Positions 1-17,275 are shown, counted from the stretch's first letter. The stretch: DNA of 64,000 nt from Bacillota bacterium (GCA_015059425.1 SVAM01000001.1:28027-92026), one strand, 5' to 3'. The notes: generated from the letters alone by a model not told the origin. A program made the numbers and translations.

Positions 1-1701
1 AAATTGATTTGGTGTATGTTCTGTCCTCTTGTGCTCAATAGTATCACACTTTTGGTTCTCCATATATAATATTTCATTTTCAAGAGGTCCACCTATATGT
101 TTTGCTCCTTTAGTATGCGATCTTTCTGTACCAAATAAATTCAAGAATATATCTAGTTTTACATTATATCTATCGCCATCCACTTTGGATACAATAATTT
201 CATCTACAAACTTTCTGATAAATTCTTCTATAGAGCCACCATCAATCTCCTCTTGAATAGATTTTGACATCTTATCTATATTGTCATTACTTTGTTTTAG
301 TATTTCAATCTGCTTCAATACTTCTTCTTTGCGGTTCTTAAGTCTTTGAAGATTTTCTTCGAAACTATCAAATTGACTTTTTAAAGCATCTCTTGTCAGT
401 TCTCCATTAAATACCATATCAAATGCAAGTGCTTTCTTGTCTTCAATGACTTTAATATCCTTATCTATCGCTGCTAAATCTTTATCATACTGATTAGTCT
501 TATCAATGTTGTTATACAATTCTAGCATATTCTCTACTATTGATGATTTGTTTGGAATTATGTTATTCATTATTTGCTTCAATATATTATAAAGATCTAT
601 CTCTGCAATAATAGGAGACTCACAAGCTTCAATACGATATTGTAAATACATGCCACAACTCCATGTAGGTCTATTCTTTCTTCTACTACCATGCGATCTT
701 TGAAAATTAGCATTACAATCCTTACAATAAATCTTAGAACTAAAAGGATATTTCAAACCGCCTGACCAATAGTTATTATTCTGATAACTCTTTGTCCTAG
801 TTGTTAATATTTCATTTGCCTTATCCCAAAGTTCTTCTGATACAATAGCTGGTATAATTTCTTCTTCAGTTTTGTAAATCTTTTGCTCTTCAATTGGAAG
901 TTTCTTTCTTCTTTTGGTTCTATAGTCCATTATTTCATGTTCATGACTTCTATAAAAACCTTTATATTTTGGATTCATTATCATACGCTTAAGACTATCT
1001 TTATCATACATTCTACCTTTCTTATTTAAATAACCCATTGCAGATAGTTTTTTTGATAATTTATGAAATCCATATTCTCCTGTAGCGTATAGTTCAAACA
1101 GCGTTCTAATGAATTTTGCTTCTTCTTCAACAATTACTAGCTTACATTTATCCTTCTTATAACCAGTAATATTACTAGACCCAAGAACATGACCTTTTTC
1201 CATAGCTTGCTTATGACCGAACTTAACCCTTGAAGAAAGCTTCTTAGATTCTTCTTGCGCTACACTAAATAAAGTATTTAAAATCATTTCAGAATTTGGA
1301 TCAAAAGTATTTAATGCTTGATTTTCAAAAAACAAACCCACACCATGTTCCTTAAGTTCTCTAATTGTATGAATACTATCTTCAAGGTCACGAGCAAACC
1401 TAGAAACTTCTTTTGTCACAATTAAATCAAACTTATTTAATTTAGCATCGCGTATCATACGCTTAAAGTCATCACGTTTGGTAATAACAACACCTGTAAT
1501 TCCTTCATCATAGTATCCTTCAACAAATGTCCAGTTTGAATTTGACTTAATATAATTTCTATAATAGTCTAATTGATTTTCTAATGAATTAATTTGAACA
1601 TCACTATCAGTTGATACTCTACAATAATAAGTAACTCGAAGAGGAAGATTACGAAGGTTTTCCCCACGAATTACTGCAGATACTATTTCATCATAGGACA
1701 T
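1..1701 (-). CDS. Large serine recombinase (integrase). Partial: the 3' end runs off the left window edge and at least 566 aa are visible.
   Basis: Minus-strand ATG at 1701 with an AGGAGG RBS. The N-terminus MSYDEIV...RVTYYCRVSTDSDVQ carries the resolvase-type catalytic Ser motif. A long recombinase domain follows, with a Cys-rich zinc ribbon (CKDCNANF...WSCG) and a C-terminal coiled coil. The ORF is absent from the ORF track because it has no stop inside the window. Confidence 0.8.
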   Translation of the reverse strand, partial: MSYDEIVSAVIRGENLRNLPLRVTYYCRVSTDSDVQINSLENQLDYYRNYIKSNSNWTFVEGYYDEGITGVVITKRDDFKRMIRDAKLNKFDLIVTKEVSRFARDLEDSIHTIRELKEHGVGLFFENQALNTFDPNSEMILNTLFSVAQEESKKLSSRVKFGHKQAMEKGHVLGSSNITGYKKDKCKLVIVEEEAKFIRTLFELYATGEYGFHKLSKKLSAMGYLNKKGRMYDKDSLKRMIMNPKYKGFYRSHEHEIMDYRTKRRKKLPIEEQKIYKTEEEIIPAIVSEELWDKANEILTTRTKSYQNNNYWSGGLKYPFSSKIYCKDCNANFQRSHGSRRKNRPTWSCGMYLQYRIEACESPIIAEIDLYNILKQIMNNIIPNKSSIVENMLELYNNIDKTNQYDKDLAAIDKDIKVIEDKKALAFDMVFNGELTRDALKSQFDSFEENLQRLKNRKEEVLKQIEILKQSNDNIDKMSKSIQEEIDGGSIEEFIRKFVDEIIVSKVDGDRYNVKLDIFLNLFGTERSHTKGAKHIGGPLENEILYMENQKCDTIEHKRTEHTPNQF

Positions 1702-1735
1702 AATCTTCCTCCTTTGCTACTTTAGTTTACATATA

Positions 1736-1879
1736 TTATGCTGCCCTTAATGCTTTAAGCATCTTAAGTAACTTTTCATTTGCCTTCGAAAAAGTATTCT
1801 CATCAATAATATTTCTTTTATAAAGGTTTGTATTAATAATAATTTGAATTTGTACTTCTGCTATCTTATTCATATCCAT
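1736..1879 (-). CDS. Small 47-aa ORF immediately upstream of the large serine recombinase. It could be a regulator or a directionality-factor candidate.
   Basis: The ORF begins ATG and translates as MDMNKIAEVQIQ...KMLKALRAA, with a weak GAGAAG RBS. Its stop lies just 5' of the recombinase RBS. Confidence 0.25.
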   Translation of the reverse strand: MDMNKIAEVQIQIIINTNLYKRNIIDENTFSKANEKLLKMLKALRAA

Positions 1880-2139
1880 AATAATCTTCTCACTTTCATA
1901 AACTACTTAAGTCTATGTGTGAAATAAATGAATAATTCATAAACAGCTTTAACATTAAATCACTTAAATACATCACTTTGTCAATAGACTTAAATACATT
2001 AAATAGTGAAATGGGTAAGTGAGACGTTCATATAAAGCCAAAAAAGGAGGTAAGCTAAATACAAAAGTAATGTAGCATGTTAACCACTTACCCAATATTC
2101 ACAGCGAGAGTACCAACCAAAACATATATAAGCACTAAT

Positions 2140-2348
2140 ACTATGGGCACTGCACCACTCGCTAGTATGTTATAAGAAATTGTTTGGACATTTTTCACTT
2201 TAATCGCAAAAAAGTAGAAAAAAGTGTTAAAAACTTATAAAAACAGCGAATTATCAAGCATTAATACATAAATATTCTCACTAAAAGACATACGTACATC
2301 CTTACTAGAAAATAGTGTGAAAATTCTCCCTAGTCTTACTTGGGAAGC
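2140..2348. repeat. Copy A of a bipartite non-coding module, 3' of resolvase remnant genes.
   Basis: A ~75-bp block (gcacca..gttataagaaattgtttggacatttttcactttaatcgcaaaaaagtagaaaaaa) is followed about 130 bp later by an imperfect palindrome, tccctagtCTtacttggga, at 2327-2345. Confidence 0.6.
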
Positions 2349-2399
2349 AAATTGACCCCCAAAAAAAGAAGCTACTAATTAAGTAACTTCTACTTCAAT

Positions 2400-2780
2400 T
2401 TACATCCACCCTTGCTCAAATCCAACTAATTCAGGATACTTATCAAAGTTGATGAAGAAATTCATTTTGTCCTTTAGTAAAAATATCGTATAAAACATAT
2501 TAACCTTTCGATTACAGATATATAGTTCAGTTTCATATCTACATAAAGTTTCTAAAATATTAATAACCTCTTGTATGCGAAATCCTAAGTCATTAAGTCG
2601 AAGAATATATAATTTACTATATTTAACTTTACTTAATACTTCTTTCAAATTACCATCTTTAGTACCATAATCGTAAAATATCTTTCTTTCACTGATATCA
2701 TAACTTCTAAGTGTGCTTATTGCATCATCACCAGCAATACCATTCTTAACAATTCTAAAGTATCCATAGCCATAATTCAT
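2400..2780 (-). pseudogene. Remnant of a small serine recombinase N-terminal catalytic domain. The catalytic Ser is replaced (GYFRIVKNG vs GYCRCSTNE) and the E-helix and HTH are missing.
   Basis: Residues ~1-95 align with the intact resolvase at 3414-4016 (KIFYDYGTKDG...LYILRLNDLGFRIQEVINILETLCRYETEL). The sequence then diverges. Confidence 0.5.
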
Positions 2781-2781
2781 T

Positions 2782-3036
2782 CTATATCAAATCCTTTCTT
2801 ACAATTAAATCCGGCTTTCTAGGACGACCTAACTTCTTACCATTTCTAACAGCAAGAGCTAATCCTATCTTTATCCTTTGTGATTTACTTTTTGATTCTA
2901 CTTCTCTAAGTTTAGCATTAAAGTTTTGTCTACACTTGGTTTCATAAGCAAAACCACCATTTCTAAAATCAGTATCAGCATTATCAATTACCTCTAATTT
3001 TTCTAACATATTCTTAATATTAATTTCTTTGAACAT
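2782..3036 (-). pseudogene. Fragment of a small serine recombinase. It covers only the E-helix and arm region and ends GKKLGRPRK, with no catalytic domain and no HTH.
   Basis: FRNGGFAYETKCRQNFNAKLREVESKSKSQRIKIGLALAVRNGKKLGRPRK aligns to residues ~100-150 of the resolvase at 3414-4016. The fragment sits upstream of the N-terminal remnant, so the order is scrambled. Confidence 0.5.
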
Positions 3037-3177
3037 ATCACTTCATCTCCTTCACAAATTATTCAAAGTTAAACTAAGCATCAATATACCACCCACATAA
3101 TATTCTTATACATGACTACTAACAACTTATAAAATCACATCCTTACTATCAACAAATGCAGACAGACACAATACAAA

Positions 3178-3361
3178 CAACGTTGCACCAACTGCTATTA
3201 CGTTATAAGAAATTGTTTGGACATTTTTCACTTTAATCGCAAAAAAGTAAAAAAAAAAACTTGTAAAACCGATGATTCTACAAGTAATTATTTGTAAAAA
3301 ACTAGTGATTTTCAATATTCAGAAAACTCTAAAAATTCGTCCCTAGTCCTACTTGGGAAGA
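3178..3361. repeat. Copy B of the bipartite non-coding module, 3' of the intact resolvase gene.
   Basis: It carries the same ~75-bp block (3178-3250) and the palindrome tccctagtCCtacttggga at 3340-3358. Confidence 0.6.
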
Positions 3362-3413
3362 AAAAAGAGCCCATTCAAAAGCTCTCCTCGCATGCTTAGA
3401 CAGTGAAATGCTA

Positions 3414-4016
3414 CTAAGCATTTTCTACTATATCTAGATACTTATAAATAGTTGGATACGATAATTGAGTAACTCTAGCAAAAGCCATTTTGTTTAGAGT
3501 TCCATTCTTATACTTAGGATAATACTGCATAAACACCTTTGGAATATCATCATAAGTTGACTTAGGACGTCCTAACTTCTTACCAGCCTTAACAGCTGTA
3601 GCTAATCCTAAATGGATTTGATGTATTTTCAGCTTTGCTTCCATCTCCCCAAAAACCGCGTTAATTTTTAGCATACCTTCAATCATAGGATCTAAACTAC
3701 CATTCCTACAATCTATATCAATACTTCCAACAATAAGCCTAAATTTCTTTGCAATAATCAAATCAATTATTTCACACAAAACCTTTGTATTCCTACACAA
3801 ACGAGTAATATCAGTAACTATTAAAGTATCACCCTCATTCATTTCTTCTAACAGTGCATCAAGTCCAGGTCTATGTTCCTTCCTACCAGAAATATACTCA
3901 TACCTTATATTAGATATATCTACACCTTTATCAATTAATGCATCAATCTGATACTTGACATCTTGTTTTGACTCGTTGGTGGAACAGCGGCAGTAACCCC
4001 ATACTTTGCTTTCCAT
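3414..4016 (-). CDS. Small serine recombinase of the resolvase/invertase family (catalytic domain plus C-terminal HTH).
   Basis: The N-terminus GYCRCSTNESKQDV has the catalytic Ser. The E-helix reads GMLKINAVFGEMEAKLKIHQ and the arm reads GKKLGRPKS. A C-terminal HTH follows. Confidence 0.8.
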   Translation of the reverse strand: MESKVWGYCRCSTNESKQDVKYQIDALIDKGVDISNIRYEYISGRKEHRPGLDALLEEMNEGDTLIVTDITRLCRNTKVLCEIIDLIIAKKFRLIVGSIDIDCRNGSLDPMIEGMLKINAVFGEMEAKLKIHQIHLGLATAVKAGKKLGRPKSTYDDIPKVFMQYYPKYKNGTLNKMAFARVTQLSYPTIYKYLDIVENA

Positions 4017-4250
4017 ATTAAATTACCTCTTTTCTAAAGTGTAAAAGAAAACATCTTTCACATTTCGTTTATATAAATCACTTAAATTCGTGGAAAAAGC
4101 AACGTATTTCGGATAAGTTTCTAATATAAAAGAAATCAAATGATTACGTTTATACTCAATATTCAGCCAAATAAAAAGAATAATAAGCTATAACACCTAT
4201 TATCCAATTCATACAATCACACCAGCTACAATGCAAGTTATACACCTATA

Positions 4251-4688
4251 TCATAAAGTACCAACAGGTATCCAACTAATAATGAAGTTGTTGTCATCAT
4301 CCTCATATTTTAACTTGGTTATACCAGTAGCATCAGCAGTAGTCTCTACTAAACACAACATCATAGGAATATCACTCTTAATCTTATATCCATCATTCGT
4401 GTATTTTATTACTAGAGAGTTAATACCATTCCTATATTGTAACCTATCATAAATATTATCACCAAGCATCTGTTGTAAAAACAACTTGTCAACTTCAATT
4501 GAACCTACACTAAAAAGGAAAGCATGATTAAAGATAGGATCATCTATTACATCAACTACACTTGTTAAATTAATATCTAATTTTTTAAGTTTACTACAGG
4601 GAATAATAAAACTCTCACCATTGTTAAACTTAACATCAATACTCTTTATATCTTTACCATTTATATTATAAAACTTTGACTTGTCCAT
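4251..4688 (-). CDS. Hypothetical protein (145 aa).
   Basis: Single long ORF lying downstream of the peptidase gene on the same strand. Confidence 0.45.
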   Translation of the reverse strand: MDKSKFYNINGKDIKSIDVKFNNGESFIIPCSKLKKLDINLTSVVDVIDDPIFNHAFLFSVGSIEVDKLFLQQMLGDNIYDRLQYRNGINSLVIKYTNDGYKIKSDIPMMLCLVETTADATGITKLKYEDDDNNFIISWIPVGTL

Positions 4689-4767
4689 AATGACTCCTTC
4701 AACTACTTAAATATATAAACTATTGCACACAAAAAAAGATAGCAATGCTATCTCTATATTATAATAA

Positions 4768-6105
4768 TTATTCACTTATTAATTCAATTGCATTTCCACC
4801 TGTATTGGCACTTCCAGGTAAAAAGTTTTCATCCGTATACTTAATCCAGACAGTACCATCACCATTAGAATCAGGAAAATATTTAACACGTGCCCATGTA
4901 TTTCCCCATGAATTTAACACAAGCCAAGATTCTTTGGAATCATCCCATCCAATAATTAACATTCTATGTCCAGGTTGAATATCATCACGCATCTTAATAA
5001 ATGCTGAACCATATTTCTTAACAAGCTCTTTAGTATACAAATTTAGTAATTCTTTTTCATATTCTTCAGCGTTAGGTATATCGTCAAATATATTATATTC
5101 ACTTTTATCAGCATGCACTAAACTCAATATTTTAGAGTACTTATCAAGCAGATTAGTTAATCCATAAGAACGTTGCATAGCTATGGTTTCATAATCTTCA
5201 CCCTTTTCAGATTCATATGATAAATAATAATATTTTTTCTTACCAGGAATTAAATGATCAGAACCAAGAAGTATAGTATTATCTTCTTCATTAATAATTC
5301 CATCAATATTAGCATCTAATCCATTAATCTTCTTCTCAAAATCTATCAAAAATTGATAATCTAGACCTTTCAGCTGTGCAGATATTTCTAATGCCTTAGT
5401 ACTTGACCATATCTCACAAGTATCAGAACTTCCTTGATCTCCAGCTATAACTTTTACTTTATCTCTAATATCAAATTTAGACTCTATATCTTGTTTCTTC
5501 GTTTCAAATGGTTCAATAGCCGCTTCTATCTTTTTCTCTAAACAAACCTTTTCATCTAACATTAAACTTGTTACTGCATTTTGATGTATATCTTCCTCTT
5601 CGTATTTACCTATACAGGTATAATCATATTCTTCACCAAGAATATCATGTCTATATTTATCACTATCAATACATTTATAACCATCATCGTTACGAACAGC
5701 ATAATTACCACCATCACAAGTAATTGGTTCTTCACTTCCACAATAATAGAGATCACCATCAGAACCACAAATTGAAATATTCAATTGCTCAAGGCGTTTA
5801 GACTCATATGAAAATATAGAAACTCCTGAGATAGTAATTACAACAATCGAAGCAAGTATAAATATCTTCATGTAGCTTCTAGTTGTATAATTCTTTTTAA
5901 ATATTAATACAGAACCTACAATACCAATAACGAACAGGATCATCATAAAATTAGTATCCTGTGAAACAAAACCATTTTCATCAAAATAATCAATTATTAA
6001 TAATAATCCTCCAAGAGCTATAGCAAGCAAAAAACTTTGACACAATGATTTTCGTAGTGGATGTTTCTTCTTACTTTCAATCTTATTTTTCTTCACAACA
6101 TACAA
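4768..6105 (-). CDS. Membrane-anchored papain-like (C1-type) cysteine peptidase with a Cys-rich extracytoplasmic region.
   Basis: Two N-terminal TM helices are followed by a Cys-rich stretch. The C-terminus shows Cys...His...Asn signatures: QGSSDTCEIWSS, HRMLIIGWDD and LNSWGNTWA. Confidence 0.55.
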   Translation of the reverse strand: MYVVKKNKIESKKKHPLRKSLCQSFLLAIALGGLLLIIDYFDENGFVSQDTNFMMILFVIGIVGSVLIFKKNYTTRSYMKIFILASIVVITISGVSIFSYESKRLEQLNISICGSDGDLYYCGSEEPITCDGGNYAVRNDDGYKCIDSDKYRHDILGEEYDYTCIGKYEEEDIHQNAVTSLMLDEKVCLEKKIEAAIEPFETKKQDIESKFDIRDKVKVIAGDQGSSDTCEIWSSTKALEISAQLKGLDYQFLIDFEKKINGLDANIDGIINEEDNTILLGSDHLIPGKKKYYYLSYESEKGEDYETIAMQRSYGLTNLLDKYSKILSLVHADKSEYNIFDDIPNAEEYEKELLNLYTKELVKKYGSAFIKMRDDIQPGHRMLIIGWDDSKESWLVLNSWGNTWARVKYFPDSNGDGTVWIKYTDENFLPGSANTGGNAIELISE

Positions 6106-6115
6106 CTCCTTAAAT

Positions 6116-6400
6116 TTAACAACCCCAAACTAACTTTTCAACAAACATTGGGATAAACTTCTCAATAAATAAAACAGCAAGTATAATTTCAGCAACAAGT
6201 AACAAAATAATAATGTTATATCCAAAACCAGCAGATGTAACAGTTAACGCAAGATCAAACGGAATTTGTGTTGCCTCACATATGGAATCAGCTATCATCT
6301 TGTTATTATGAATAAACAATGCACTAACACAAGCAAGAAACAATGACTCCATAACAATTAAGAACTTACTATCTTCAAACCTTCCAGTAAACATAAACAC
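6116..6400 (-). CDS. Small integral membrane protein (94 aa).
   Basis: Hydrophobic ORF lying 10 nt upstream of the peptidase gene in the same operon. Confidence 0.4.
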   Translation of the reverse strand: MFMFTGRFEDSKFLIVMESLFLACVSALFIHNNKMIADSICEATQIPFDLALTVTSAGFGYNIIILLLVAEIILAVLFIEKFIPMFVEKLVWGC

Positions 6401-6517
6401 TCAACTCCTTCCTGACAACTTCTAACATATCTATTATACCACAAAGGTAACATTTGAAGATACCTACATTTAAAAACATTCATGAGAAAATAATATTATC
6501 TAAGGTGGAGGTGTGTT

Positions 6518-6823
6518 ATGGGAAGAAACAATCATTCTTATACAGAAGAACAATTGATTGAATATAGTGAAATTAAAAAGAACATATGCCAAAACATGCG
6601 CATCGCTAGAAAGCTTGCTCAAATGAAAGTAAAAGATGCAGCACCTGCACTTGGCATAGAGCCAGAATCACTAAAAAGGATTGAAGCTCCTAGTTCAAAA
6701 GTAGGTCCATCTTTAGAAGTACTGTGTGGTGCAATAGAATTATATGAAAAAGATCCTAATTTTTACTGGCTAGACTGGGAAGAGAATGAAAAACTATTAG
6801 ATACAGAAAAGGAAGAGAATTAA
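6518..6823 (+). CDS. XRE-family helix-turn-helix transcriptional regulator.
   Basis: HTH segment ICQNMRIARKLAQMKVKDAAPALGIEPESLKRIE. The gene is divergent from the peptidase operon and has GGAGG as its RBS. Confidence 0.6.
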   Translation: MGRNNHSYTEEQLIEYSEIKKNICQNMRIARKLAQMKVKDAAPALGIEPESLKRIEAPSSKVGPSLEVLCGAIELYEKDPNFYWLDWEENEKLLDTEKEEN

Positions 6824-7047
6824 CTCTTCCTTTTAAAGTGTGCTATAAAGTTTGTACGTGAATCATCAGTTGGAGTTAACGATTCAAAAAAGTAATCAGT
6901 ACAATTAACCAGATAATATATTATTTCAAACTCTCTAGCATTGTCTTCTTGACTCTTAAATGTTATCTCAATAACATCAGGTAGTTCCTTAGATAAAGTT
7001 TCCTTTACCTCTTCGAATGTAGGAAACTCAAGAATAAGCTTATTCAA
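6820..7047 (-). CDS. Hypothetical small protein (75 aa).
   Basis: ORF only. Confidence 0.3.
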   Translation of the reverse strand: MNKLILEFPTFEEVKETLSKELPDVIEITFKSQEDNAREFEIIYYLVNCTDYFFESLTPTDDSRTNFIAHFKRKS

Positions 7048-7108
7048 TTACATCACCATCCGCTTGTATAATAACGTGCTTTTAATAATTATACAACTTA
7101 ATGGTTCA

Positions 7109-7828
7109 CTATACAAAGTACTTAAGGTACTTCTTCTTTGAGTTGTAAGTCTTAAACATCTTGTTGTAATCAGCAATTCTAGATTCAACATATCTTGTCT
7201 TGTAAGCTTCAATATTTCTTTTCCTATTTCTAATAGGATCCTCTGCTTTAGCAAAATAATCTAGTCTTGCACCAATATCATCAAATAGTTCTAAAACATT
7301 ACCTCTACCTCTTTGACAGAAAGCTACATCAGACATAAATTGAACCATCTTACGACTCTCATCTAAATTATACTCCTTAACTTCCTTAATTGGAATATCT
7401 AGAGCTGTCAATTCTTCTTCTATAGAAGGAACAAACTTGGCATTACGAATAAAATTTGAAATGATTAACTTGTAAACTAACTCCTTTAATTTCTCATCAG
7501 ATGAATCCTCAGGTGTATAACTCAAAAGTTCTTTTAGTTCCTGCTCACTATTTCTAACAATCTCAGTGACACACATTTGAAATGGTGGAACATTAAAAAA
7601 GTTATTCTTCATACATCTAAGAAACTTGTTCATATTAGAAATGAATTGTTCAGCAGAAATCATACCGGCAGCAGGTTCAATATCAAAAGAAAAGGTTCTA
7701 TCATCAATTCTCTCCACCTCGTTCATTAAACTCCTAGTTGATAGTAAAGTAAATAAAACATTATCATACAAGCGACTCTCCTGCAGCAGAATGTACCTCA
7801 ACATCTCTGCTTTAGTCTCGGTTTTCAA
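7109..7828 (-). CDS. Hypothetical protein (239 aa).
   Basis: Long ORF with a coherent acidic/basic composition. Confidence 0.45.
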   Translation of the reverse strand: MKTETKAEMLRYILLQESRLYDNVLFTLLSTRSLMNEVERIDDRTFSFDIEPAAGMISAEQFISNMNKFLRCMKNNFFNVPPFQMCVTEIVRNSEQELKELLSYTPEDSSDEKLKELVYKLIISNFIRNAKFVPSIEEELTALDIPIKEVKEYNLDESRKMVQFMSDVAFCQRGRGNVLELFDDIGARLDYFAKAEDPIRNRKRNIEAYKTRYVESRIADYNKMFKTYNSKKKYLKYFV

Positions 7829-8167
7829 AATATCACCATCCTCATACTTTGTTATAACGTAATAATCAGGGTTTGGGAGCTACATTTGTGAAAAAAACAT
7901 AAAATCTATGGTATAATGGAATAGACAGATAAATAGTAATTTGTTAATTTGATTAGAAAAAATTAGATGCAAAAATTGAGAAAAAAAGACAAATTAAAAC
8001 CGGAATTTTAAAATAAAAAATGTTATAATATAAGTGTTATTATATAACTAGAAAACCAATATCAGTATTGCCATTAATGGCAGTTGATGGTAATAAAAAA
8101 ACTATCATTGTTTTCTATATTATAGGTTAATCTATCTGCCTTAGATTGAATCGTAAGGAGGTGCACA

Positions 8168-8416
8168 ATGAAAAGAGTAAAAGCTGGTTGTGTTCTTCAA
8201 ACATTAGTATTTTTGCAAAAAGAAGAATTAAATCTAAGTAAGGAAGAAGCACTTAAATTGAATCGTGAAGAAGTAGAACATTATAAAGAATCTTTAGAAA
8301 GAGCAAAAACTAGATATCAAATTCTTGATGTAAAAGAACAGGAAGATGCTTCTATAATTGTTCATGTAAGAAAACATCTTAATTCAACTACTGATGTTGA
8401 AGAATATTTTAATTAA
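8168..8416 (+). CDS. Hypothetical protein (82 aa).
   Basis: AGGAGG RBS 6 nt upstream. A bidirectional terminator hairpin follows at 8420-8450. Confidence 0.45.
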   Translation: MKRVKAGCVLQTLVFLQKEELNLSKEEALKLNREEVEHYKESLERAKTRYQILDVKEQEDASIIVHVRKHLNSTTDVEEYFN

Positions 8417-8454
8417 AAAAAAGTCACAATTTTGTGGCTTTTTAAAATGCAAAA

Positions 8455-8655: not shown

Positions 8656-8656
8656 A

Positions 8657-9142: not shown

Positions 9143-9257
9143 AAAATGTTCCTCCTTTTCTTTGTGTGTTACAATATAATTTTATCAAAATTTTAAATTT
9201 TTCGTAAGTTTTTAAAATCTAATAAATTGAAAAAATGTACACAAAATGAAGTTTTTA

Positions 9258-9373
9258 TGGTATAATTTTGACTTGTCAGACCCAGCTTAATGCGTATAAA
9301 GAGACATCTTTTGCGCATTATTTTTTTGCCCTAAATTAAGCTAAAGGGTTGATTATAAAATAAGGAGGAGAAA
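9258..9373 (+). promoter_or_regulatory. Promoter (TGGTATAAT) and 5' leader holding a terminator-like hairpin and an alternative pairing, upstream of the MATE fusion gene. It is an attenuator or riboswitch candidate.
   Basis: The extended -10 tggtataat is at 9258-9266. A hairpin aatgcgtataaagagacatcttttgcgcatt is followed by a T7 run. The upstream agcttaat can pair with the downstream attaagct next to the RBS. Confidence 0.35.
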
Positions 9374-11353
9374 ATGGAAAATCAAGAAAACAACAGATAT
9401 CTTGGAGAAGAAAAGATATCAAAAATTTTATTCAAATTTGCTATTCCATGTATATTATCACTATTAATTAGTTCTTTATATAATATAGTTGACCAAATAT
9501 TCATTGGACATAGTGAATTAGGTTATTTAGGAAATGCAGCAACATCAGTAGTATTTCCTATAACAATTATTTCAGTTGCGTTTGCATGGTGCTTTGGTGA
9601 TGGTTCAGCAGCTTTCTTATCACTAGCACAAGGAAGAAAAGATACAAAAGATGTTCATAAAGGAATTGGAAATAGTATCTTAATTAACTTCATTATAAGC
9701 ATTATATTTGTAATATTAGGCTTTATATTTATGGAACCACTATTAAGAATGTTTGGTGCTTCAGATGTTACATTAGGGATAGCTAAAGATTATTTTAAAA
9801 TAATTCTACTATTTATTCCTGTGTACATGATGGCTAATGTAATGAATCCAATTATTAGAGCAGATGGTTCACCATTAGGAGCTATGATTGCTACTTTAGT
9901 TGGAGCAATTACAAATATTATTTTAGACCCAATATTTATATTTGTGTTTGATATGGGAATTGAAGGAGCTGCTTGGGCTACAATTATAGGACAAGTATTA
10001 TCATTAATAATTTCTATAATTTATTTTGTTAAATATACAAAGACTTTTAAACTTTCAAAAGATAGTTTTAAAGTAAATATTGGTATATTTAGTAACATTA
10101 TTAAACTGGGAGTTAGTACATTTATAACACAAATGTCTATAGTAATTATTTCATTAGTTTGTAATATTATGTTGGCAAAATATGGTGCGATGTCAAAATA
10201 TGGTGCAGATATTCCTATTGCAACTATGGGTATTTGTATGAAAGTATTTACTATTGTTATTAATATAGTAGTTGGTATCATATTAGGAGCACAACCAATT
10301 TTAGGATATAACTTTGGAGCGAAGAAAATTGATAGAGTTAAACAAACTTATAAGATAGTATTAATTTCTACTATAATAGTTGGTATTTTGTCAACATTAG
10401 TATTTGAATTATGTCCTGAAGTTGTTATTAAAATGTTTGGTACTGAATCAGATTTATATATGGAATTTGCAGTTATAACATTTAGAATATTCTTAATGCT
10501 AATTACATTTACTTGTACAATTAAAATGACATCAATATTTTTTCAAGCAGTTGGAGATCCAGTTAAAGCAGCAATCACATCTTTATTAAGAGATATTGTT
10601 TGTTTTGTTCCTATGGTAATTATTTTACCTAAATTCTTCGGAGTAAAAGGAGCATTATATGCTGCACCTGTAGCAGATGTTGTGGGTATTTTAGTATCTT
10701 CAGTATTGGTAGTTGTATTCTTTAAGAAAATTAGTTCAACTAAGAAAGTAAAAGTTGAAAAAGCAAAATTACTTAATTCTAAAGAAGGAATTATTATTGC
10801 TATTTCAAGAAGTCATGGTAGTCAAGGTAAATATATTGGTAAATTAATATCTGAACAATTAAAGATACCTTATTACTATAAAGAAATGACAGCTTTAGCT
10901 GCACAAGAAGCTGGATTAGATAGAGAGTTTATTGATAAATTAAATTCATCAAATAATATTTTAAGGGATCTATATTTAACTACAGAACCAGTTAAATATG
11001 CTATTGAAGCTCAAGAAAAAGCAATTAATATGATTGCTGATAAAGGTTCTTGCGTAATAGTTGGTAGAGCTGCTGACTATGTATTAAGAGATAGAAAAAA
11101 TGTCATTAAAGTTTTCATTACCGCTGATGAGGAAACAAGAATTAAAAATGTTATGAATATGTATAAAGATAAAAAATCAGATGCAATAAAAAATATTAAA
11201 AAATCTGATAAAAATAGATCTAGTTATTATAAAGCTATTTCTGGTAAAGAATGGGGCAAAGCTGAAAACTATGATTTATGTATAGACTCTTCCATCGGTG
11301 TTGAAGAAACTGCAAAAGTAATAATTAATTACCTAAATACTTTAAATAAATAA
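9374..11353 (+). CDS. MATE-family efflux transporter fused to a C-terminal cytidylate-kinase-like (AAA-type NMP kinase) domain.
   Basis: About 450 aa with 12 TM helices and typical MATE composition. The C-terminus GIIIAISRSHGSQGKYIGKLISEQLKIPYY...VIVGRAADYVLRD is a CMP-kinase-like fold. Confidence 0.8.
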   Translation: MENQENNRYLGEEKISKILFKFAIPCILSLLISSLYNIVDQIFIGHSELGYLGNAATSVVFPITIISVAFAWCFGDGSAAFLSLAQGRKDTKDVHKGIGNSILINFIISIIFVILGFIFMEPLLRMFGASDVTLGIAKDYFKIILLFIPVYMMANVMNPIIRADGSPLGAMIATLVGAITNIILDPIFIFVFDMGIEGAAWATIIGQVLSLIISIIYFVKYTKTFKLSKDSFKVNIGIFSNIIKLGVSTFITQMSIVIISLVCNIMLAKYGAMSKYGADIPIATMGICMKVFTIVINIVVGIILGAQPILGYNFGAKKIDRVKQTYKIVLISTIIVGILSTLVFELCPEVVIKMFGTESDLYMEFAVITFRIFLMLITFTCTIKMTSIFFQAVGDPVKAAITSLLRDIVCFVPMVIILPKFFGVKGALYAAPVADVVGILVSSVLVVVFFKKISSTKKVKVEKAKLLNSKEGIIIAISRSHGSQGKYIGKLISEQLKIPYYYKEMTALAAQEAGLDREFIDKLNSSNNILRDLYLTTEPVKYAIEAQEKAINMIADKGSCVIVGRAADYVLRDRKNVIKVFITADEETRIKNVMNMYKDKKSDAIKNIKKSDKNRSSYYKAISGKEWGKAENYDLCIDSSIGVEETAKVIINYLNTLNK

Positions 11354-11371
11354 AAACAAATTACAATTTAA

Positions 11372-11397
11372 CGAGCAGATGTAACAATCTGCTTTTC
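11372..11397 (+). terminator. Rho-independent terminator after the MATE fusion gene.
   Basis: Hairpin gagcagatgtaacaatctgcttt followed by tcttat. Confidence 0.5.
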
Positions 11398-11439
11398 TTA
11401 TGGTCTAAATCTTAACCAAGTAAAAAGAGCAATCACTCA

Positions 11440-11925
11440 TTAATCGCTCTCTCTATCACTAAACTTCAAAATCAATTCATCTATAACAGCATCTTGACCA
11501 CTTTTTTCTATCATCTCTTGTAGTGTTCCATCTGCTCTTAAACGTTCTATTTCCTCTAATATAGGACCTAGACGACAATCTGGATGCTTAATATTTCTAG
11601 GATCAAACAATAATGCCACCATCTGATTAAAAAACAAACGATTATGGCTCACTAGTTTCGGATTGATATTACATTTGATAATGCAATCTTGGTCAAAATC
11701 AGCAGTTGAATCATCAGCAGAATACTCATTAATCAACTCTTGTACCATTTCCATTGCTGATTTCTTCAAAACATAAGGTTTCTTTCTTCCATAGGTTAAT
11801 ACATTTGCATCATCATACAAGGTAATCCAGTTCTTATCGTATCTTTCAAGCTTAACCAACCAAGTTCTATCTTTCATAGCACAACTCCTCTCAAATAACC
11901 ACCTAATTCGGCATTCTTTGCCCAT
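11440..11925 (-). CDS. Hypothetical protein (161 aa) in a locally higher-GC segment.
   Basis: Long ORF. Its codon usage is visibly richer in G/C than the surrounding genes. Confidence 0.4.
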   Translation of the reverse strand: MGKECRIRWLFERSCAMKDRTWLVKLERYDKNWITLYDDANVLTYGRKKPYVLKKSAMEMVQELINEYSADDSTADFDQDCIIKCNINPKLVSHNRLFFNQMVALLFDPRNIKHPDCRLGPILEEIERLRADGTLQEMIEKSGQDAVIDELILKFSDRESD

Positions 11926-12110
11926 TTGGCGAATCTTTCGAACAAAGTAATAGAAACACCCACTAACAAAGAAAAGAAACGAAAATCAAGACGTTTTGAA
12001 ATCGTAATATTTCTCTCAAAATAGAAGGACATTTCTACAATAGGATGTTCTATTAAAATATATAAAAAAGCTGTAAAAACCCTAAAAAAGGTAGAAAAAC
12101 CATAAAGAAA

Positions 12111-12437
12111 TCATTCTTCTTCGAACCAATCTATATATACAGGTCTAGTATAGCGCTTAATATTTGCTAATAAAGCTACTTTAAAATAAGCGTATAAACA
12201 TTCAATATCATTTCCATCCTCATCTTTTAGATGATTTCTCTTTATACAGGATATTGTATAGCTAGTGCAATATAGCACAACACGATACTGAAAATGCTGA
12301 AGTAGCTCACTAAAGAATTCATTCCATAGACTCAACTCGAATTCGGAAGGTTCTATTATCAGCTTTCTCCTAATTAGTTCTGAAACAAACAACATGGGTG
12401 TATTTTCATATTTCTTGGAACTTGTAACTTCTTTCAT
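12111..12437 (-). CDS. Hypothetical protein (108 aa).
   Basis: ORF only. Confidence 0.4.
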   Translation of the reverse strand: MKEVTSSKKYENTPMLFVSELIRRKLIIEPSEFELSLWNEFFSELLQHFQYRVVLYCTSYTISCIKRNHLKDEDGNDIECLYAYFKVALLANIKRYTRPVYIDWFEEE

Positions 12438-12772
12438 TTTCCTATCACCTTTGATTTTGTATTTAACCTTAAAAGTAAAACATAATCAATAGGAAATAGA
12501 ACAGAATATAAATATTATTACTTACTCCTTCACATTGTGAAGACAGCAGAAAAGGCAACCCACACTTCGTTGCACTAAAAACCCATATAAAAGTATAAAT
12601 AATACTAGGTATTGTTCTTGAAAATAAGATTAAGTAAAACCATTAACATGCTCTCCTGCAAGCTACGCCGGATCCACCGAATCACGCAACGCTTCATGCA
12701 ACGATCCACAGAACCAGCTTTACCTGCAGCAGTTGCCGATAAAAACAAAACCAGTTTCACTCCTTTGCATGC

Positions 12773-13162
12773 TTAATCTAACGAAGTTAATAAATAATCA
12801 TGCATAATAGAAACAAACTCACCATCACCGATCAAAAACTTACGATATGATTTCTTGTTAAATATAATCTCTAGGAATTCACGCTCGTAAGGCCAACCTT
12901 TAACCGTCAGGTCATCACGCTTAACATTACTTACATCCCAGAACTTGGCTATAAATCCATATATATCCTGAACTTCATATCCAACTATCTTGATATAATG
13001 GGCATACTCGTTGATGTAATATCGAATTTTCTTCATAGAAGTTGATTTAAGCTTACCAATTAAAGGTCCAGTTCCATCAATATAGACACGTCCATCTTCG
13101 TAAGCAACCAGCTTCATTCCATTAAATGGATTCTTAAGTTTAACAATCCAATGTGCTTTCAT
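12773..13162 (-). CDS. Hypothetical protein (129 aa).
   Basis: ORF only. Confidence 0.4.
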   Translation of the reverse strand: MKAHWIVKLKNPFNGMKLVAYEDGRVYIDGTGPLIGKLKSTSMKKIRYYINEYAHYIKIVGYEVQDIYGFIAKFWDVSNVKRDDLTVKGWPYEREFLEIIFNKKSYRKFLIGDGEFVSIMHDYLLTSLD

Positions 13163-13403
13163 ACATTCTCAAATCCTCTCTAAATTCAAAATATTTAGCA
13201 ACTTTAAACCGGTTTGAGAGACTTTAAAGCAAAACTAGTATAAATAACCATAGTCACTTCAAAATCTCCGCTTGACCAGCTTAATCAAATAAAATAATCA
13301 TCTTATATCTGCATATACATCTTCTAGTGAAATTGTACGTCGATACTATAATTGGGATTCCTACCATCTAAATCACTAATATCATTATCTAAAATTCCTA
13401 TTC

Positions 13404-13601
13404 CTATAGAATTGTATCTATAAGCGAATCCCTACCATCTAAATCTCTCTTTGCTTTAAAACTTTCTTTTGAAATAATAGCCTTATGATTGTTAGTATTA
13501 TTATTAATATCTTTATTATTGTTATTGCGTTTTCCGAGTAGGCAATCTCGTACAAAGTTGTAAAAACGTCGCTGTAAATCCGATGATTCATCAACCATCA
13601 T
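13404..13601 (-). CDS. Hypothetical small protein (65 aa). Doubtful.
   Basis: Asn-rich low-complexity ORF. Confidence 0.2.
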   Translation of the reverse strand: MMVDESSDLQRRFYNFVRDCLLGKRNNNNKDINNNTNNHKAIISKESFKAKRDLDGRDSLIDTIL

Positions 13602-13715
13602 AGTAATATAAAATCAAATTGACAATTCTTAATGGATTATCTTAAAAGTCGTGAAGGTGAAGAACTACTCAGACAATCCATCAACTGTCACATTACTATA
13701 CGAAATCTAAATAAC

Positions 13716-13929
13716 ATTTTTCACTAAACTATCAAAAAAAGAAAAAAACATCATAATAAACTCGAAAGGTAATCTAACAATTGCCATAGTACTATACGAA
13801 ATCTAGTCACCAATTTACTCAAAAACATACAAAAAGTAATATTAATTATTATAAAAACTAAAACATTTCTGAGCACATTCAACCATCATAATTCACTTCA
13901 AAAACTTCCCTAGTGTTACTTGGGATATA
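13716..13929. repeat. Copy C of the bipartite non-coding module, immediately upstream of the methyltransferase promoter.
   Basis: The block acatttttcactaaactatcaaaaaaagaaaaaaac is at 13714-13750 and the palindrome tccctagtGTtacttggga is at 13907-13925. An extended -10 (gtggtataat) for the MTase follows at ~14020. Confidence 0.5.
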
Positions 13930-14057
13930 TTTTAACTAATCAAAAAGACAGATATATAGATTGGAATATTTAAACTAATAACATTGATTATTGTAGTTAC
14001 ATTCTAAAATTGGTTAAAAAGTGGTATAATATTTACTGATTAAATGGAGGTGTTATA

Positions 14058-16289
14058 ATGGGAAGAATGAAAAGTGTTGGAACAATCACAAAAAACTTAA
14101 AAAAAGCTTTGACAGGATATAACAAAGGTCAGGATATAACTAGTTATGAAAAATACATATACTTAATCTTATTCTACCGCTTTCTTTCTGAAAGCATAAT
14201 CAAACATATTCAAACTAACTTCAATGTAAATTATATTGAACTAAATAACAATGAGGCAGAAGCATATAAATCTCAAGTGCAAAGTGATATAGATTTCTTC
14301 ATATACCCAGAAGACTTATTCCAAAATATTGTAGCAAAAGAATTGAATAGTAGTCGTTTAGATTCAACATTAAACTCAATATTCAAGAATATCAAACAGT
14401 CTTCTAAATATGAGATATGTGAAATCTTTAGAAACATAGATACTGAAGCAGAAGGTATTGGAACTAGTCAAAATATAAGGAGTAATATATATTCAACCAT
14501 ATTAAAAGCTATATCAGATATTGACTATGACATTAACAAATCTGATTATGACTTATTTGGTAATATCTTTGAATTCTTACTAAACAATAAAGATACAAAC
14601 AATACCATGAGTCTTAAAAACGGCATATTCTATACTCAACCATCAGTAGTAAAACTATTAAAAAAGATTTCAGACCAATATATTACTGATCCTAATAACA
14701 TCTACGATCCTACTTGTGGAAGTGGTTCATTATTAACCGAATATGCAAGATTTAACAATACTATACCTTTCTATGGCAAAGAATTAAATGCAATACCTGC
14801 TATGTTATGTAGAATGAATATGATAATACACAATGTAAAAGACTTTAAAATTACTCAATGTGATACATTGCTAACTTATGATAAAGAAGAAAAAGAAAAG
14901 TACGATTTGATATTTGCTAACCCACCATTTGGAATACCTTGGAATAAATCAACTTTGCGAGAAGACGATGAAAGATTCAATGACAAACCTCTTCCTAATA
15001 AAGAGTTAGCTGATTGGGCATTCATATACCATATCATATACACGCTAAATAAAAATGGATTAGCGTTGGCAATTGATACACCAAACATGTTATCCAGAAC
15101 AAATCCTGAAGAAACTGCAGTAAAAAAACATTTAGTTGATAGCAATCAAATAGATACAATAATACTACTACCTAGAAAGATGTTCCTAAGAACTGATACC
15201 GGTACATGTCTGTTTCTGATTCGAAAAAACAAAACAGACAACAATATATTATTTGTTGATGCAGGTAACATATGTACTAAGAATAGTAATCAAGTAACTT
15301 TTAGTGATGAAAATATAGATAACATCATAGAACTTATATTAGGTAGAAAGAGCATAGACAACCTATCGTACTTAGCAACTCCAGAAGAAATAGCAAATCA
15401 CAAATATTCATTAAATATTTGTGACTACATTAATTATAAAAAAGAACACACATTTACAACTATTGAGGATGTATGCTTATCTGATTTCATTTACGAGAAT
15501 GAAGAAGAAGCTAATTACAAATCACGTTTAAAGTATAATACACAAATTAAAAGGGTTAACGAATGTATAGTCAATACTTTAGAACAACTAAAACAAAGCA
15601 ATCAAATTAAAATGATTCCACTAGCTAATGTTGCCGATATAACTATTGGTTCTAAAATAAAAGACATGAAAATAGATACCAACGATAATTTCCCATATCG
15701 CTACATTACAACAAAGGAAATACAAAATGGTGCTGTTATAGAAGACAGTTCGCTAATGTATATCAAAGAAAACAAAAGTATTCATACAGAAAGAATAAGA
15801 AAAGAAGACTTAGATGAGTTCATTAATAAAGGAAAGTTGAAAAAGGATGATGTATTATTCGCTATTTACTCAAAAGGTACCAAGGCAGCTATAGTACAAA
15901 AACCTAACTTTATATTCTCGGATAGTGTATTTCGATTAAGACCATTTAAAGATATAGAAGACGAAGTATCACCTACATATCTAAGATATGTATTAGAATC
16001 AGATTACTTTGTAGAAAAAATCAATAAACATATCAAAAGATACTATAATAATACTTCTTCTCCTACTAACTATATTACACTCGAAGACTTTAGGCAATTA
16101 ACGATTCCGGTTATTCCTCTAGGTGCTCAAGCAGATATTTGTCTATTGCTAACACTAATGGAAGCGAAATATACAGAACTTGAATTAGCTCTTAAAAGAG
16201 AACTAGAAGTATACCAATATAGGTATCACACAAATACAAAGAAACTATTTAACGATGTAGAAACAGTTGAAGAAGATGAAGAAAACTAA
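14058..16289 (+). CDS. Type I-like N6-adenine DNA methyltransferase (HsdM-type, gamma class) fused to one HsdS-type target-recognition domain. No HsdR is present in the window.
   Basis: The HsdM N-domain (YEKYIYLILFYRFLSE) and DLFGNIFEFLL...GIFYTQPSVVKLL are present. Motif I is YDPTCGSGSLL and motif IV is FANPPFG. The C-terminal ~240 aa has the HsdS TRD signature LTIPVIPLGAQADICLLLTL plus a coiled-coil tail. Confidence 0.85.
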   Translation: MGRMKSVGTITKNLKKALTGYNKGQDITSYEKYIYLILFYRFLSESIIKHIQTNFNVNYIELNNNEAEAYKSQVQSDIDFFIYPEDLFQNIVAKELNSSRLDSTLNSIFKNIKQSSKYEICEIFRNIDTEAEGIGTSQNIRSNIYSTILKAISDIDYDINKSDYDLFGNIFEFLLNNKDTNNTMSLKNGIFYTQPSVVKLLKKISDQYITDPNNIYDPTCGSGSLLTEYARFNNTIPFYGKELNAIPAMLCRMNMIIHNVKDFKITQCDTLLTYDKEEKEKYDLIFANPPFGIPWNKSTLREDDERFNDKPLPNKELADWAFIYHIIYTLNKNGLALAIDTPNMLSRTNPEETAVKKHLVDSNQIDTIILLPRKMFLRTDTGTCLFLIRKNKTDNNILFVDAGNICTKNSNQVTFSDENIDNIIELILGRKSIDNLSYLATPEEIANHKYSLNICDYINYKKEHTFTTIEDVCLSDFIYENEEEANYKSRLKYNTQIKRVNECIVNTLEQLKQSNQIKMIPLANVADITIGSKIKDMKIDTNDNFPYRYITTKEIQNGAVIEDSSLMYIKENKSIHTERIRKEDLDEFINKGKLKKDDVLFAIYSKGTKAAIVQKPNFIFSDSVFRLRPFKDIEDEVSPTYLRYVLESDYFVEKINKHIKRYYNNTSSPTNYITLEDFRQLTIPVIPLGAQADICLLLTLMEAKYTELELALKRELEVYQYRYHTNTKKLFNDVETVEEDEEN

Positions 16290-16297
16290 AGGAAAGA

Positions 16298-16328
16298 GAA
16301 TGCTCTCTTTCCTTTGTTTTATATGGTC
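16298..16328. terminator. Bidirectional rho-independent terminator at the MTase 3' end and the truncated PBP 3' end.
   Basis: Perfect 9-bp stem ggaaagaga-atgc-tctctttcc followed by tttgtttt. Confidence 0.6.
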
Positions 16329-17229
16329 ACTGTATGGTAGGTACGTGCTTAAATGTACTTCCCGGTTCATAAGTCATCCATATAGGCAAATTACGGTTAA
16401 TAACTTCAGTTTTATAATCTTGATAATTGTTACTATTAAAGTTAGGTCGACTTGCCATTGCAAGTATTTCACCAGTATTAGGGTTCATAGCCATAATTAA
16501 TGCTTGCTCTGGATTATATTTATCTATCGCATTATCAAGCTCGTTTTCAACAGCCATTTGAATATCCATATCAATCGTAAGTTTTAAAGTTATTCCGCTT
16601 GTTGGAGCTTCATAAATTTCTGTTAATTCTAACTTATTTCCTTTTCCATCTGAAAAGTATTTTATTGCACCATCTGCACCAGTCAAATATTCATCATAAT
16701 AAAGTTCTATACCTGATAAACCTTGATTATCAATACCGACATAACCAAGAACATGTGACAAAACCGTTTCATAAGGATAATATCTTTTACTCTCTTTTAA
16801 AAGATATACCCCATCATATCCTAAAGCATCAATTTTTTCTGCAATATCAAAATCTAGTCTTCTTCCTTCTGGATGCACTCTTTCAATTGATGTAGATTTG
16901 GTTACATGTGAAAGCATATCTTTATAATCAGAATTTAAAATATTAGCTAAATCTTTTGCAACTTTCTCCGGTTCATCTATTTGCCCTGGTACTACTACTA
17001 ATGATACTGTAGTTACATTATTAGCCAAAACTTTACCATTTCTATCAACAATTAAACCTCTGTCAGCTTTAATAGGAAGTTCTCTGCTCCACAAACTTTC
17101 TGCCAAAGTATTCAATTTTTCATAAGTAAATACTTGTATATAAAATACTTTAATAATAATTGCAATCAAAATAATTATACATACTAAAAATATAAATCTA
17201 ATTCTTTCATGAATATTAGAATAAAACAT
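16327..17229 (-). pseudogene. SpoVD/FtsI-like class B penicillin-binding protein, N-terminal 300 aa only. It ends 6 codons after the SxxK active-site motif.
   Basis: A TM anchor and PBP dimerisation domain are followed by ...WMTYEPGSTFK-HVPTIQ-stop. The intact paralogue at 61192-63360 has YEPGSTMK at the equivalent position and continues for another ~390 aa. Confidence 0.75.
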
Positions 17230-17275
17230 ATAACCACCTAGAAAAATATATGCATAATTAAAAAAGTTAGAAGTT

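Follow-up and report, generated by a model that had tools for sequence, protein, structure and literature searches.

The 64,000-nt stretch of Bacillota bacterium DNA analysed here (GCA_015059425.1, SVAM01000001.1:28027-92026; its whole length is called the window below) carries a truncated class B penicillin-binding protein (PBP) gene at 16327-17229 on the minus strand, and this fragment is the first of three collinear open pieces of a spoVD orthologue. Two elements with unrelated cargo, each bearing a large serine recombinase (LSR) gene, split spoVD in this uncultured low-GC gut Bacilli species, and deletion of both at the cores of their attachment (att) sites restores the open reading frame (ORF) exactly on paper. 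It is a likely new addition to the sporulation genes that are rebuilt by excision of DNA. An earlier note, made from the sequence alone, had described the truncated PBP beside a recombinase-bearing element and proposed that the element is excised during development. Its observation is correct in every detail, and the structural half of its interpretation is confirmed and extended to two elements, three pieces and, across the clade, three target sites; its developmental half is plausible.

Three pieces of one spoVD gene

The ORF at 16327-17229 encodes 300 aa, composed of the first 294 residues of a class B PBP and six foreign codons. It ends in YEPGSTFK followed by HVPTIQ and a stop, which lies six codons past SxxK as the earlier note had read it, and the HVPTIQ tail bears no resemblance to any PBP. 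Pfam placed PBP_dimer at residues 53-201 and Transpeptidase at residues 245-296, the latter covering only the first ~50 positions of the domain. The spoVD part proper, piece 1, spans 16349-17229 (minus strand) and consists of codons 1-293 and the first two bases (AA) of the SxxK Lys-294 codon; it encodes the transmembrane anchor, the dimerisation domain of the PBP and the first part of the transpeptidase domain with the catalytic Ser. The best NCBIfam match of the 300-aa fragment was TIGR02214 (spoVD). A second class B PBP in the window (61192-63360) is intact, has 722 aa and is 30% identical across the whole fragment. Its YEPGSTMK ends at residue 333 and 389 residues follow its own SxxK, in line with the ~390 of the earlier note. 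This second PBP has an FtsL-like ORF directly upstream, scored 344 bits against TIGR02214 and is PBP2X/2B-like in appearance.

Public contigs of the same strain were recovered with complete window proteins as exact-match anchors. Contigs L107 and L195 (JGI 3300023371, Ga0216340_10000581, 133.5 kb) are 100% identical to window positions 1-14016 and reach 6.6-8.3 kb further left than the window. On these contigs the recombinase stop codon is found 30 bp beyond the left window edge, and the PBP resumes on the same strand 51 bp after that stop, about 82 bp past the edge. The ORF of piece 2 has 130 aa (MVGTFK IITLSAAL...VVENSCNPGF...SFGQGISVTPLQ, then LTV and a stop) and carries the next ~120 PBP residues from the SxxK Lys on, including the SxN motif. 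It is followed in the direction of the gene by element 2, piece 3 and mraY. Piece 3 is located 6.8 kb beyond piece 2 and adjoins mraY; it is open from TTLQQIRAVSAAINGG (TTLQQIRAV...) as far as the native stop, takes in KTGT and a PASTA domain, and has no start codon at the junction. The earlier note had placed the missing half of the PBP just beyond the left edge. The same-strand continuation from the SxxK Lys is indeed there, 51 bp past the recombinase stop, but the adjoining fragment is only the middle piece of ~120 residues with SxN, and KTG and PASTA lie 6.8 kb further on. The division of the gene into two by a single element did not hold, as a second LSR-bearing element makes three pieces of it.

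In-silico removal of both elements at their cores gave a 1,905-nt ORF of 634 aa with STFK, SCN, KTGT and one PASTA domain. This reconstituted ORF scored 734.4 bits against TIGR02214 (equivalog model for stage V sporulation protein D; cut-off 688), and by this model it is assigned as a spoVD orthologue. The gene is directly upstream of mraY and, in relatives, directly upstream of a SpoVE/FtsW-family gene. The elements interrupt the coding sequence of a sporulation gene, with junctions inside the SxxK and GQG..TPLQ codons.

From the window alone, where only the N-terminal part is visible and the sequence after SxxK is unrelated to PBPs, the fragment could be taken for an ordinary decayed pseudogene, i.e., the remnant of a PBP paralogue whose remainder was lost beyond recovery by deletion or rearrangement. 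This explanation is refuted by the other 340 residues, which the search left of the window found in the same strain, collinear, in frame and stop-free. The breaks also coincide with LSR att sites and recur at the same points in dozens of hosts, and we regard simple decay as highly improbable.

Misassembly, or a split protein whose pieces work as separate polypeptides, is more improbable still. The data are metagenome assemblies, and an ATG for the middle piece is supplied by element 1. However, the same 300-aa protein and its flanks were found on at least 23 contigs with identical junctions in independent JGI, ENA, Logan and NCBI assemblies; because of this recurrence the arrangement is no assembly artefact. 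The middle piece has Gly in place of the catalytic Ser (MVGTFK), one transpeptidase fold would need three chains, and the pieces cannot act as separate proteins because piece 3 has no start codon at its junction.

Recombinase elements, their attachment sites and their relatives

Element 1 occupies positions 1-16348 of the window, extends 97-98 bp beyond the left edge to 16,446 bp in full, and sits at the SxxK-coding site of spoVD. Junction sequences are given below in gene orientation, and crossover dinucleotides were inferred from symmetry. The attL1 site (16334-16365, minus strand) reads CCGGGAAGTACATTT-AA-GCACGTACCTACCAT, with the host half-site at 16351-16365, the predicted crossover AA at 16349-16350 and the element half-site at 16334-16348. 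The foreign HVPTIQ codons and stop (16327-16347) come from element 1. The attR1 site, left of the window and taken from L195, reads ATGGTAGGAACGTTC-AA-AATTATTACACTTTC, and its crossover dinucleotide lies 66 bp after the LSR stop codon. The two half-sites of element 1, ATGGTAGGAACGTTC and ATGGTAGGTACGTGC, form a 13/15 inverted repeat centred on AA (the attP1 arms), so the inverted repeats that the earlier note had proposed to look for at the junctions are present; AA corresponds to the first two bases of the SxxK Lys codon. Element 2 has TTACAAC as the core common to attL2 and attR2, and around the CA of this core the reconstructed attP2 shows symmetric TTAGAC/GTCTAA arms. The attP of related elements at the SxN site is a perfect 16-nt inverted repeat. 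In all three cases the reconstructed attP fits the pattern of LSR att sites, a short core within an imperfect inverted repeat and little likeness of attB to attP beyond the core. The junctions predicted after excision are GAACCGGGAAGTACATTTAAAATTATTACACTTTCGG for attB1, GGAATGGTAGGAACGTTCAAGCACGTACCTACCATACAG for attP1, GTGTAACTCCATTACAACAAATAAGAGCTGTATC for attB2 and CCTTAGACTACGTTACAACTTACTGTCTAATAAATG for attP2.

The element 1 recombinase gene (1-1701, minus strand) has 567 of its 576 codons inside the window, and the last 9 codons and the stop lie off the edge; the earlier note had likewise seen the gene run off the window. Its domains (PF00239 Resolvase, PF07508 Recombinase, PF13408 Zn_ribbon_recom) and its size mark the predicted product as an LSR. 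Full-length 576-aa homologues share 99% identity with it, and the complete gene is found at 10179-11909 of L195. A 47-aa ORF (1736-1879, minus strand), located 34 bp upstream of the recombinase, is called as a gene and is a candidate recombination directionality factor (RDF). Among the elements of this recombinase clade that were examined, all those with upstream sequence have it in the same place. At the other end of the element, the ORF at 14058-16289 (plus strand, 743 aa) encodes a predicted type I-like N6-adenine methyltransferase fused to an HsdS-like specificity domain (Pfam N6_Mtase and HsdM_N; PADLOC MTase_I and Specificity_I), and no HsdR gene was found near it. Its end is separated from the PBP stop codon by 37 bp, and its terminator hairpin lies at 16287-16316, so that the truncation adjoins the methyltransferase end and terminator as had been noted. 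No internal att-like site was found in element 1. As the earlier note had supposed, recombinase and methyltransferase are parts of a single element; it measures 16.4 kb and has attL and attR at its ends.

Element 1 also encodes a resolvase-type small serine recombinase (3414-4016, minus strand; 200 aa; Pfam Resolvase E = 6e-25), which is present in related elements too, and a fusion of a MATE-family transporter with a cytidylate-kinase-like domain (9374-11353, plus strand; 659 aa in a single ORF; Pfam MatE and Cytidylate_kin2). The GC content over 1-17000 is 0.24-0.33 (mostly 0.28-0.33, about 0.30), and that of the remaining window is about 0.22 (range 0.16-0.32, mostly 0.19-0.27). A family of 65-73-nt direct repeats occurs inside the element at 2149-2223, 3182-3256, 13675-13749 and 13771-13835. 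Two of the copies, 92% identical, stand on either side of a variable segment with 84-aa and 126-aa ORFs, in place of which related elements have a 107-aa ORF; the repeats could be promoter/operator modules or recombination sites of the small resolvase. A phage origin of the elements was considered and rejected: PHROGs gave no phage structural genes (only replication-initiator-like and unknown-function matches), and no close relative was found in IMG/VR or INPHARED. By its gene content, element 1 is a cargo element and not a prophage.

Element 2 (6,845 bp) is inserted in the codons for ...GISVTPLQ/Q. It carries genes for a helix-turn-helix/M78-peptidase protein resembling RmrA/CapP, a DUF4411 protein, a transglutaminase-core protein, a replication-initiator-like fragment, and a 68-aa ORF before an LSR of 553 aa, whose Resolvase, Recombinase and Zn_ribbon_recom domains are as in the 576-aa LSR. 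The ORF of the 553-aa LSR crosses attR2 (L195 19175-19215), its last ~13 codons being host spoVD DNA in another frame; therefore excision would alter the C-terminus of the recombinase. A hairpin, GTAGAACTTAA-TA-CCTTAAGTTCT followed by a T-run, is located about 60-110 nt upstream of the 68-aa ORF, is conserved from L115 to L181 and shows compensatory changes between element variants (e.g., TTGAG/CTCAG). This hairpin before the small-ORF/recombinase pair may be a terminator or a regulatory structure.

Truncated N-terminal SpoVD proteins end at three sites: SxxK (~300 aa), directly after ENSCN (~364 aa, a length that includes a foreign tail) and after SVTP(I/L)(H/Q) (~418 aa). One LSR clade corresponds to each site, of 576 aa (SxxK), 533 aa (SxN) and 553 aa (GQG..TPxQ), with 35-44% mutual identity. 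In nearly all loci of the 576-aa clade that reach past the recombinase a PBP C-terminal piece comes next, and relatives of the 553-aa LSR are followed by SpoVD residues 412-634 in more than 50 metagenome loci. All pieces stand in order on eight single contigs, which have the third site only (L124, L126, L136, L157, L165), the SxN and third sites (L135), or the SxxK and third sites as in the window strain (L159, L164). A pairing of SxxK with SxN is seen in L020 and L110/L197. The elements have just one constant part, a small ORF and then the LSR, which lie at their downstream end in the same orientation as spoVD. The small ORFs have 47, 62 and 68 aa at the SxxK, SxN and third sites, respectively, and the 47-aa and 62-aa ORFs, in the same position, are 37% identical over 38 aa. 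The 68-aa ORF showed no significant BLASTP similarity to the other small ORFs and is equivalent by position only, so homology of all three was dropped and retained for the 47-aa/62-aa pair. Cargo differs widely. The element in the window has the orphan methyltransferase-specificity fusion and the MATE/cytidylate-kinase-like fusion, and other elements encode D5-type primases, type I restriction-modification systems, AbiE, GmrSD, KAP NTPase, heavy-metal ATPases and a SMODS-domain (CBASS-type) nucleotidyltransferase.

Three loci show tandem or off-target arrangements. In L174 (11560-11800; coverage 157x) two tandem elements meet at an attP-like joint with no spoVD piece nearby, and the cargo includes type I restriction-modification, KAP NTPase, a SMODS-domain nucleotidyltransferase, DUF6602 and AbiEi/AbiEii. 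In L001 (3680-3763), whose recombinase is 99% identical to that of the window, the contig ends in an attP-type joint, GGTAGGAACGTTTAAGAACGTAGATACCATATAGTGACC; it was rejected as proof of an excised circle, since such a joint is indistinguishable from a tandem array. The recombinase protein of L011-L014 is found in L015 (11148-11530) beside a Big_14-domain gene, not spoVD, at ...GGTACTTTTAAAAAAGGC, which is apparently a secondary attachment site. We also asked whether the target sites are the most conserved stretches of the gene, and this was not upheld, as two of them rank at the 65th and 73rd percentiles of the 30-mers in the clade (the SxN site was left out).

Empty sites and intact genes were found as well. 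The sister species L027 has an empty, intact site, GGAAGTACATTC-AA-AATAATTACG, and is syntenic with the host DNA right of the fragment in the window at 75-82% nucleotide identity. Two large ORFs directly upstream of spoVD (17276-20039; 609 and 320 aa, without Pfam match) are poorly conserved in this otherwise syntenic species. L013, which is occupied by an element of the same recombinase clade, matches intact L027 at 99.88% identity over 9.9 kb, and the match begins exactly at the core; the two are a strain-level occupied/empty pair. A scan of GTDB species representatives gave 80 intact 634-aa orthologues with 65-95% best-segment identity to a chimeric query, and at most 86.6% identity to the window strain's own reconstituted gene. 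They come from metagenome-assembled genomes (MAGs) named Bacilli bacterium, Mycoplasma sp. CAG:776, Tenericutes bacterium, Ca. Caccenecus and Ca. Coprovivens. The impression that all close homologues are truncated (the best 120 matches have at most 519 aa) was rejected in view of these 80 intact orthologues; that homologue search, like one with a second query, covered proteins up to about 1.7 times the query length and is unusable for frequencies.

Identical recombinases are present in differing hosts (P0003 in L002-L005; P0007 in L011-L016), where the spoVD C-terminal pieces are 53-68% identical to the reference and the downstream genes differ. Identical recombinases in diverged spoVD genes indicate recent movement between species. 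Three paralogous LSR lineages might use spoVD as a landing pad with several sites throughout a whole clade of uncultured gut Bacilli, each lineage aimed at one catalytic-motif stretch (SxxK, SxN, GQG..TPxQ) and ferrying defence and other cargo between species. Carriers would then need two (possibly three) independent excisions in the same mother cell to restore the gene. We hold this broader proposal as tentative, a little short of an even chance.

Proposed excision in the mother cell, or inactivation of the gene

In B. subtilis, spoVD is a sigma-E-controlled cortex gene of the mother cell (PMC517825), and from this we infer a mother-cell cortex role for the spoVD of the window. The sporulation-type neighbour genes in the window are intact. 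They encode a SpoIVB-like peptidase (296 bits, below the cut-off of 305), an adjacent pair of M23 and M50 peptidases beside mreC, and a DacB-type carboxypeptidase followed by two Gate-domain (SpmA/B-like) proteins. In many loci the spoVE/ftsW-family genes downstream of the split spoVD are intact too. The doubly split allele was found in many independent samples of the window strain, in which it appears to be fixed.

We assign a probability of roughly 0.55 to the reading that the LSRs act together with their small ORFs in the mother cell to remove the elements, after which SpoVD is made. This reading rests on the precedent of sigK, spsM, spoVFB, spoVR, gerE, kamA and yabG, the intact sporulation-type neighbours, the apparent fixation of the doubly split allele and the fact that piece 3 is untranslatable alone. 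The small upstream ORF would probably provide the directionality factor, and each LSR would release its element in circular form while the mother cell undergoes terminal differentiation; the rebuilt SpoVD would then be available for cortex synthesis, and the forespore chromosome would retain both elements. In vegetative cells disruption of spoVD would be without cost, so the elements would be tolerated in this harbour; several related elements carry anti-phage defence genes.

Possible promoters were searched for upstream of spoVD and of the small ORFs. The region upstream of spoVD (17245-17288, minus strand) contains the terminator hairpin of the preceding gene (17265-17288) and then a CATATATT box (17245-17252), which ends 15 bp before the start codon and has its first base 23 bp before the ATG. 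Among the intact orthologues, most of the closer ones have the CATA core (CATAnAnT) in place, some 15-25 bp ahead of the start codon, and such a conserved CATA-type -10 box is no more than suggestive of mother-cell expression. The box fits the sigma-E/sigma-K -10 box quoted for C. difficile, CATATAAT (PMC3789822), but overlaps a sigma-A TATAAT box; it was dropped as a sporulation promoter because the two are inseparable. A sigma-E-like motif, GAATTAT-N14-CATAGACT (1910-1938, minus strand), lies about 30 bp upstream of the 47-aa ORF and is kept in the L013-type element, not in the L020 type. It was rejected as a sporulation promoter for lack of enrichment and since the pattern was fitted after the sequence had been seen. 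No sigma-70-type promoter was found on the minus strand at 1600-2500.

The main rival explanation is plain insertional inactivation, in which horizontally spreading integrative islands with defence or other cargo use conserved motif stretches of spoVD as attachment sites because the gene is dispensable during growth in the gut. Excision would then be transfer-linked or stochastic, and the carriers would be cortex-less, effectively asporogenous, or able to sporulate only after rare excision. We judge this unlikely, with appreciable weight nonetheless. It accords with the recent horizontal spread of identical recombinases among diverged hosts, with the off-target and tandem cases (the non-PBP site of L015, the attP-like joints of L174 and L001), with the lack of a demonstrable sporulation promoter or of a reconstituted allele in public protein data, and with the mixture of sporulating and non-sporulating species in the uncultured Bacilli orders related to Mycoplasmatales, where the hosts may belong (PMC10868615). 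On the other hand, it leaves the intact sporulation-type neighbours in the window and the intact spoVE/ftsW-family genes downstream unexplained, as well as the openness of nearly all pieces in more than 60 loci and the apparent fixation of the doubly split allele across many independent samples. Moreover, nearly all LSR elements studied experimentally in mother-cell sporulation genes excise developmentally.

Several observations weigh against excision in the mother cell. The presence of two elements in one gene is equally what neutral accumulation would give if the gene were already dead, since a neutral target would permit such stacking. The motif GAATTAT-N14-CATAGACT is not enriched (4 matches in the window versus 5.3 expected; the pattern was fitted post hoc), and before the 68-aa ORF only the hairpin and an AT-rich leader are seen, with no sigma-E-like motif. 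No PBP piece follows the recombinase in L001 (attP-like joint) and L015 (non-PBP site). Damaged pieces occur in a few relatives, namely a frameshifted one in L173, a truncated one in L142 and the deletion fusion P0177. Conservation is far higher in the recombinases than in the host genes, and since the insertions are recent, intact pieces are expected even without selection. An exact look-up among 15 billion proteins gave no reconstituted or single-element allele of this strain.

P0177 joins the N-terminal part of spoVD, up to residue ~314, in frame with a pseudouridine synthase domain. It looks like a deletion derivative, which suggests that the gene was lost for good in some lineages. The ratio of nonsynonymous to synonymous substitution rates (dN/dS) was 0.076-0.093 for the split gene versus 0.055-0.102 for intact pairs, with dS saturated at 1.2-1.9 and hence little power. 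As a test of maintained function it was dropped, the values being equal to those of intact genes, dS saturated and the insertions recent.

Significance and comparison with known systems

If excision in the mother cell is true, spoVD, a gene for a cell-wall enzyme, would join sigK, spsM, spoVFB, spoVR, gerE, kamA and yabG among the genes with programmed excision. It would be the first sporulation gene with several independent elements, as far as our literature search showed. Under the broader landing-pad proposal, the system would parallel in sporulation the multi-element nif/hup rearrangements of heterocysts, and a spoVD scored as absent or pseudogenised in sporulation surveys of MAGs could be an insertion artefact. 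The hosts would be a new group for such excision; they are abundant, uncultured gut Bacilli with reduced genomes, whose sporulation capacity is now judged from gene presence in MAGs. The arrangement suggests a link between mobile defence islands and the sporulation cycle, and the three sets of LSR, att sites and candidate RDF, with defined attB and attP, are possible genome-engineering tools.

Excision during sporulation has been reported for elements splitting the mother-cell genes sigK, spsM, spoVFB, gerE and kamA (and spoVR), and in the same set of papers excision of the yabG element depends on growth phase (PMC4191935, PMC5595907, PMC6957869, PMC10747680). According to the earlier note, spoVD is not known to be among the classic interrupted genes, and the reviews likewise name sigK, spsM, spoVFB, spoVR, gerE, kamA and yabG. 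No report of a natural element in spoVD was found in the full-text literature, many subscription papers being outside the search; the sole match was a laboratory insertion of ICEBs1 at secondary sites (PMC3715440).

The skin elements in sigK (SpoIVCA in B. subtilis; CD1231 and the RDF CD1234 in C. difficile) resemble the spoVD elements in being LSR elements within the coding sequence of a sporulation gene, whose precise deletion restores the ORF, and in having a small protein near the recombinase that is a likely directionality factor. They differ in target, which is here the cortex transpeptidase gene spoVD with two elements in one gene, and not a sigma factor. The cargo of the spoVD elements is not prophage-like, and their recombinases are distant, the best matches to phage or known LSRs having at most 43% identity. 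The developmental timing of the spoVD elements is proposed by analogy with such systems. The gin element in gerE of B. cereus ATCC 10987 (PMC5595907) is also a non-prophage element in a mother-cell gene. It is essentially just a recombination unit, whereas the spoVD elements carry 5-16 kb of cargo (methyltransferase, transporter fusion, toxin-antitoxin or defence-like genes) and, unlike gin, clearly move between species.

SPβ in spsM and phi3T in kamA (SprA/SprB; attL-rdf-int-attR units; PMC4191935, PMC6957869) share with the spoVD elements an rdf-int module beside one att site, the residence of a horizontally mobile element in a mother-cell gene, and interchangeable recombination units with variable cargo. 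In contrast, the spoVD elements have no phage genes, and their candidate RDF lies directly upstream of the recombinase and is co-oriented with it. The nifD, fdxN and hupL elements of cyanobacteria (XisA, XisF, XisC) likewise are several independent elements, each with its own recombinase, in genes that only a terminally differentiated cell needs. XisF is an LSR, and both spoVD LSRs gave weak matches to the XisF model of NCBIfam. The heterocyst elements belong to another phylum and another developmental programme, and the likeness is by analogy only. Finally, SCCmec, moved by the Ccr recombinases at rlmH (orfX), is similar in that LSR-moved cargo islands enter a conserved gene and accrete in tandem at hybrid att sites (compare L174), and Ccr models are the best NCBIfam matches of the spoVD LSRs. 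SCC enters the 3' end of its target, which stays active, whereas the spoVD elements split the catalytic domain.

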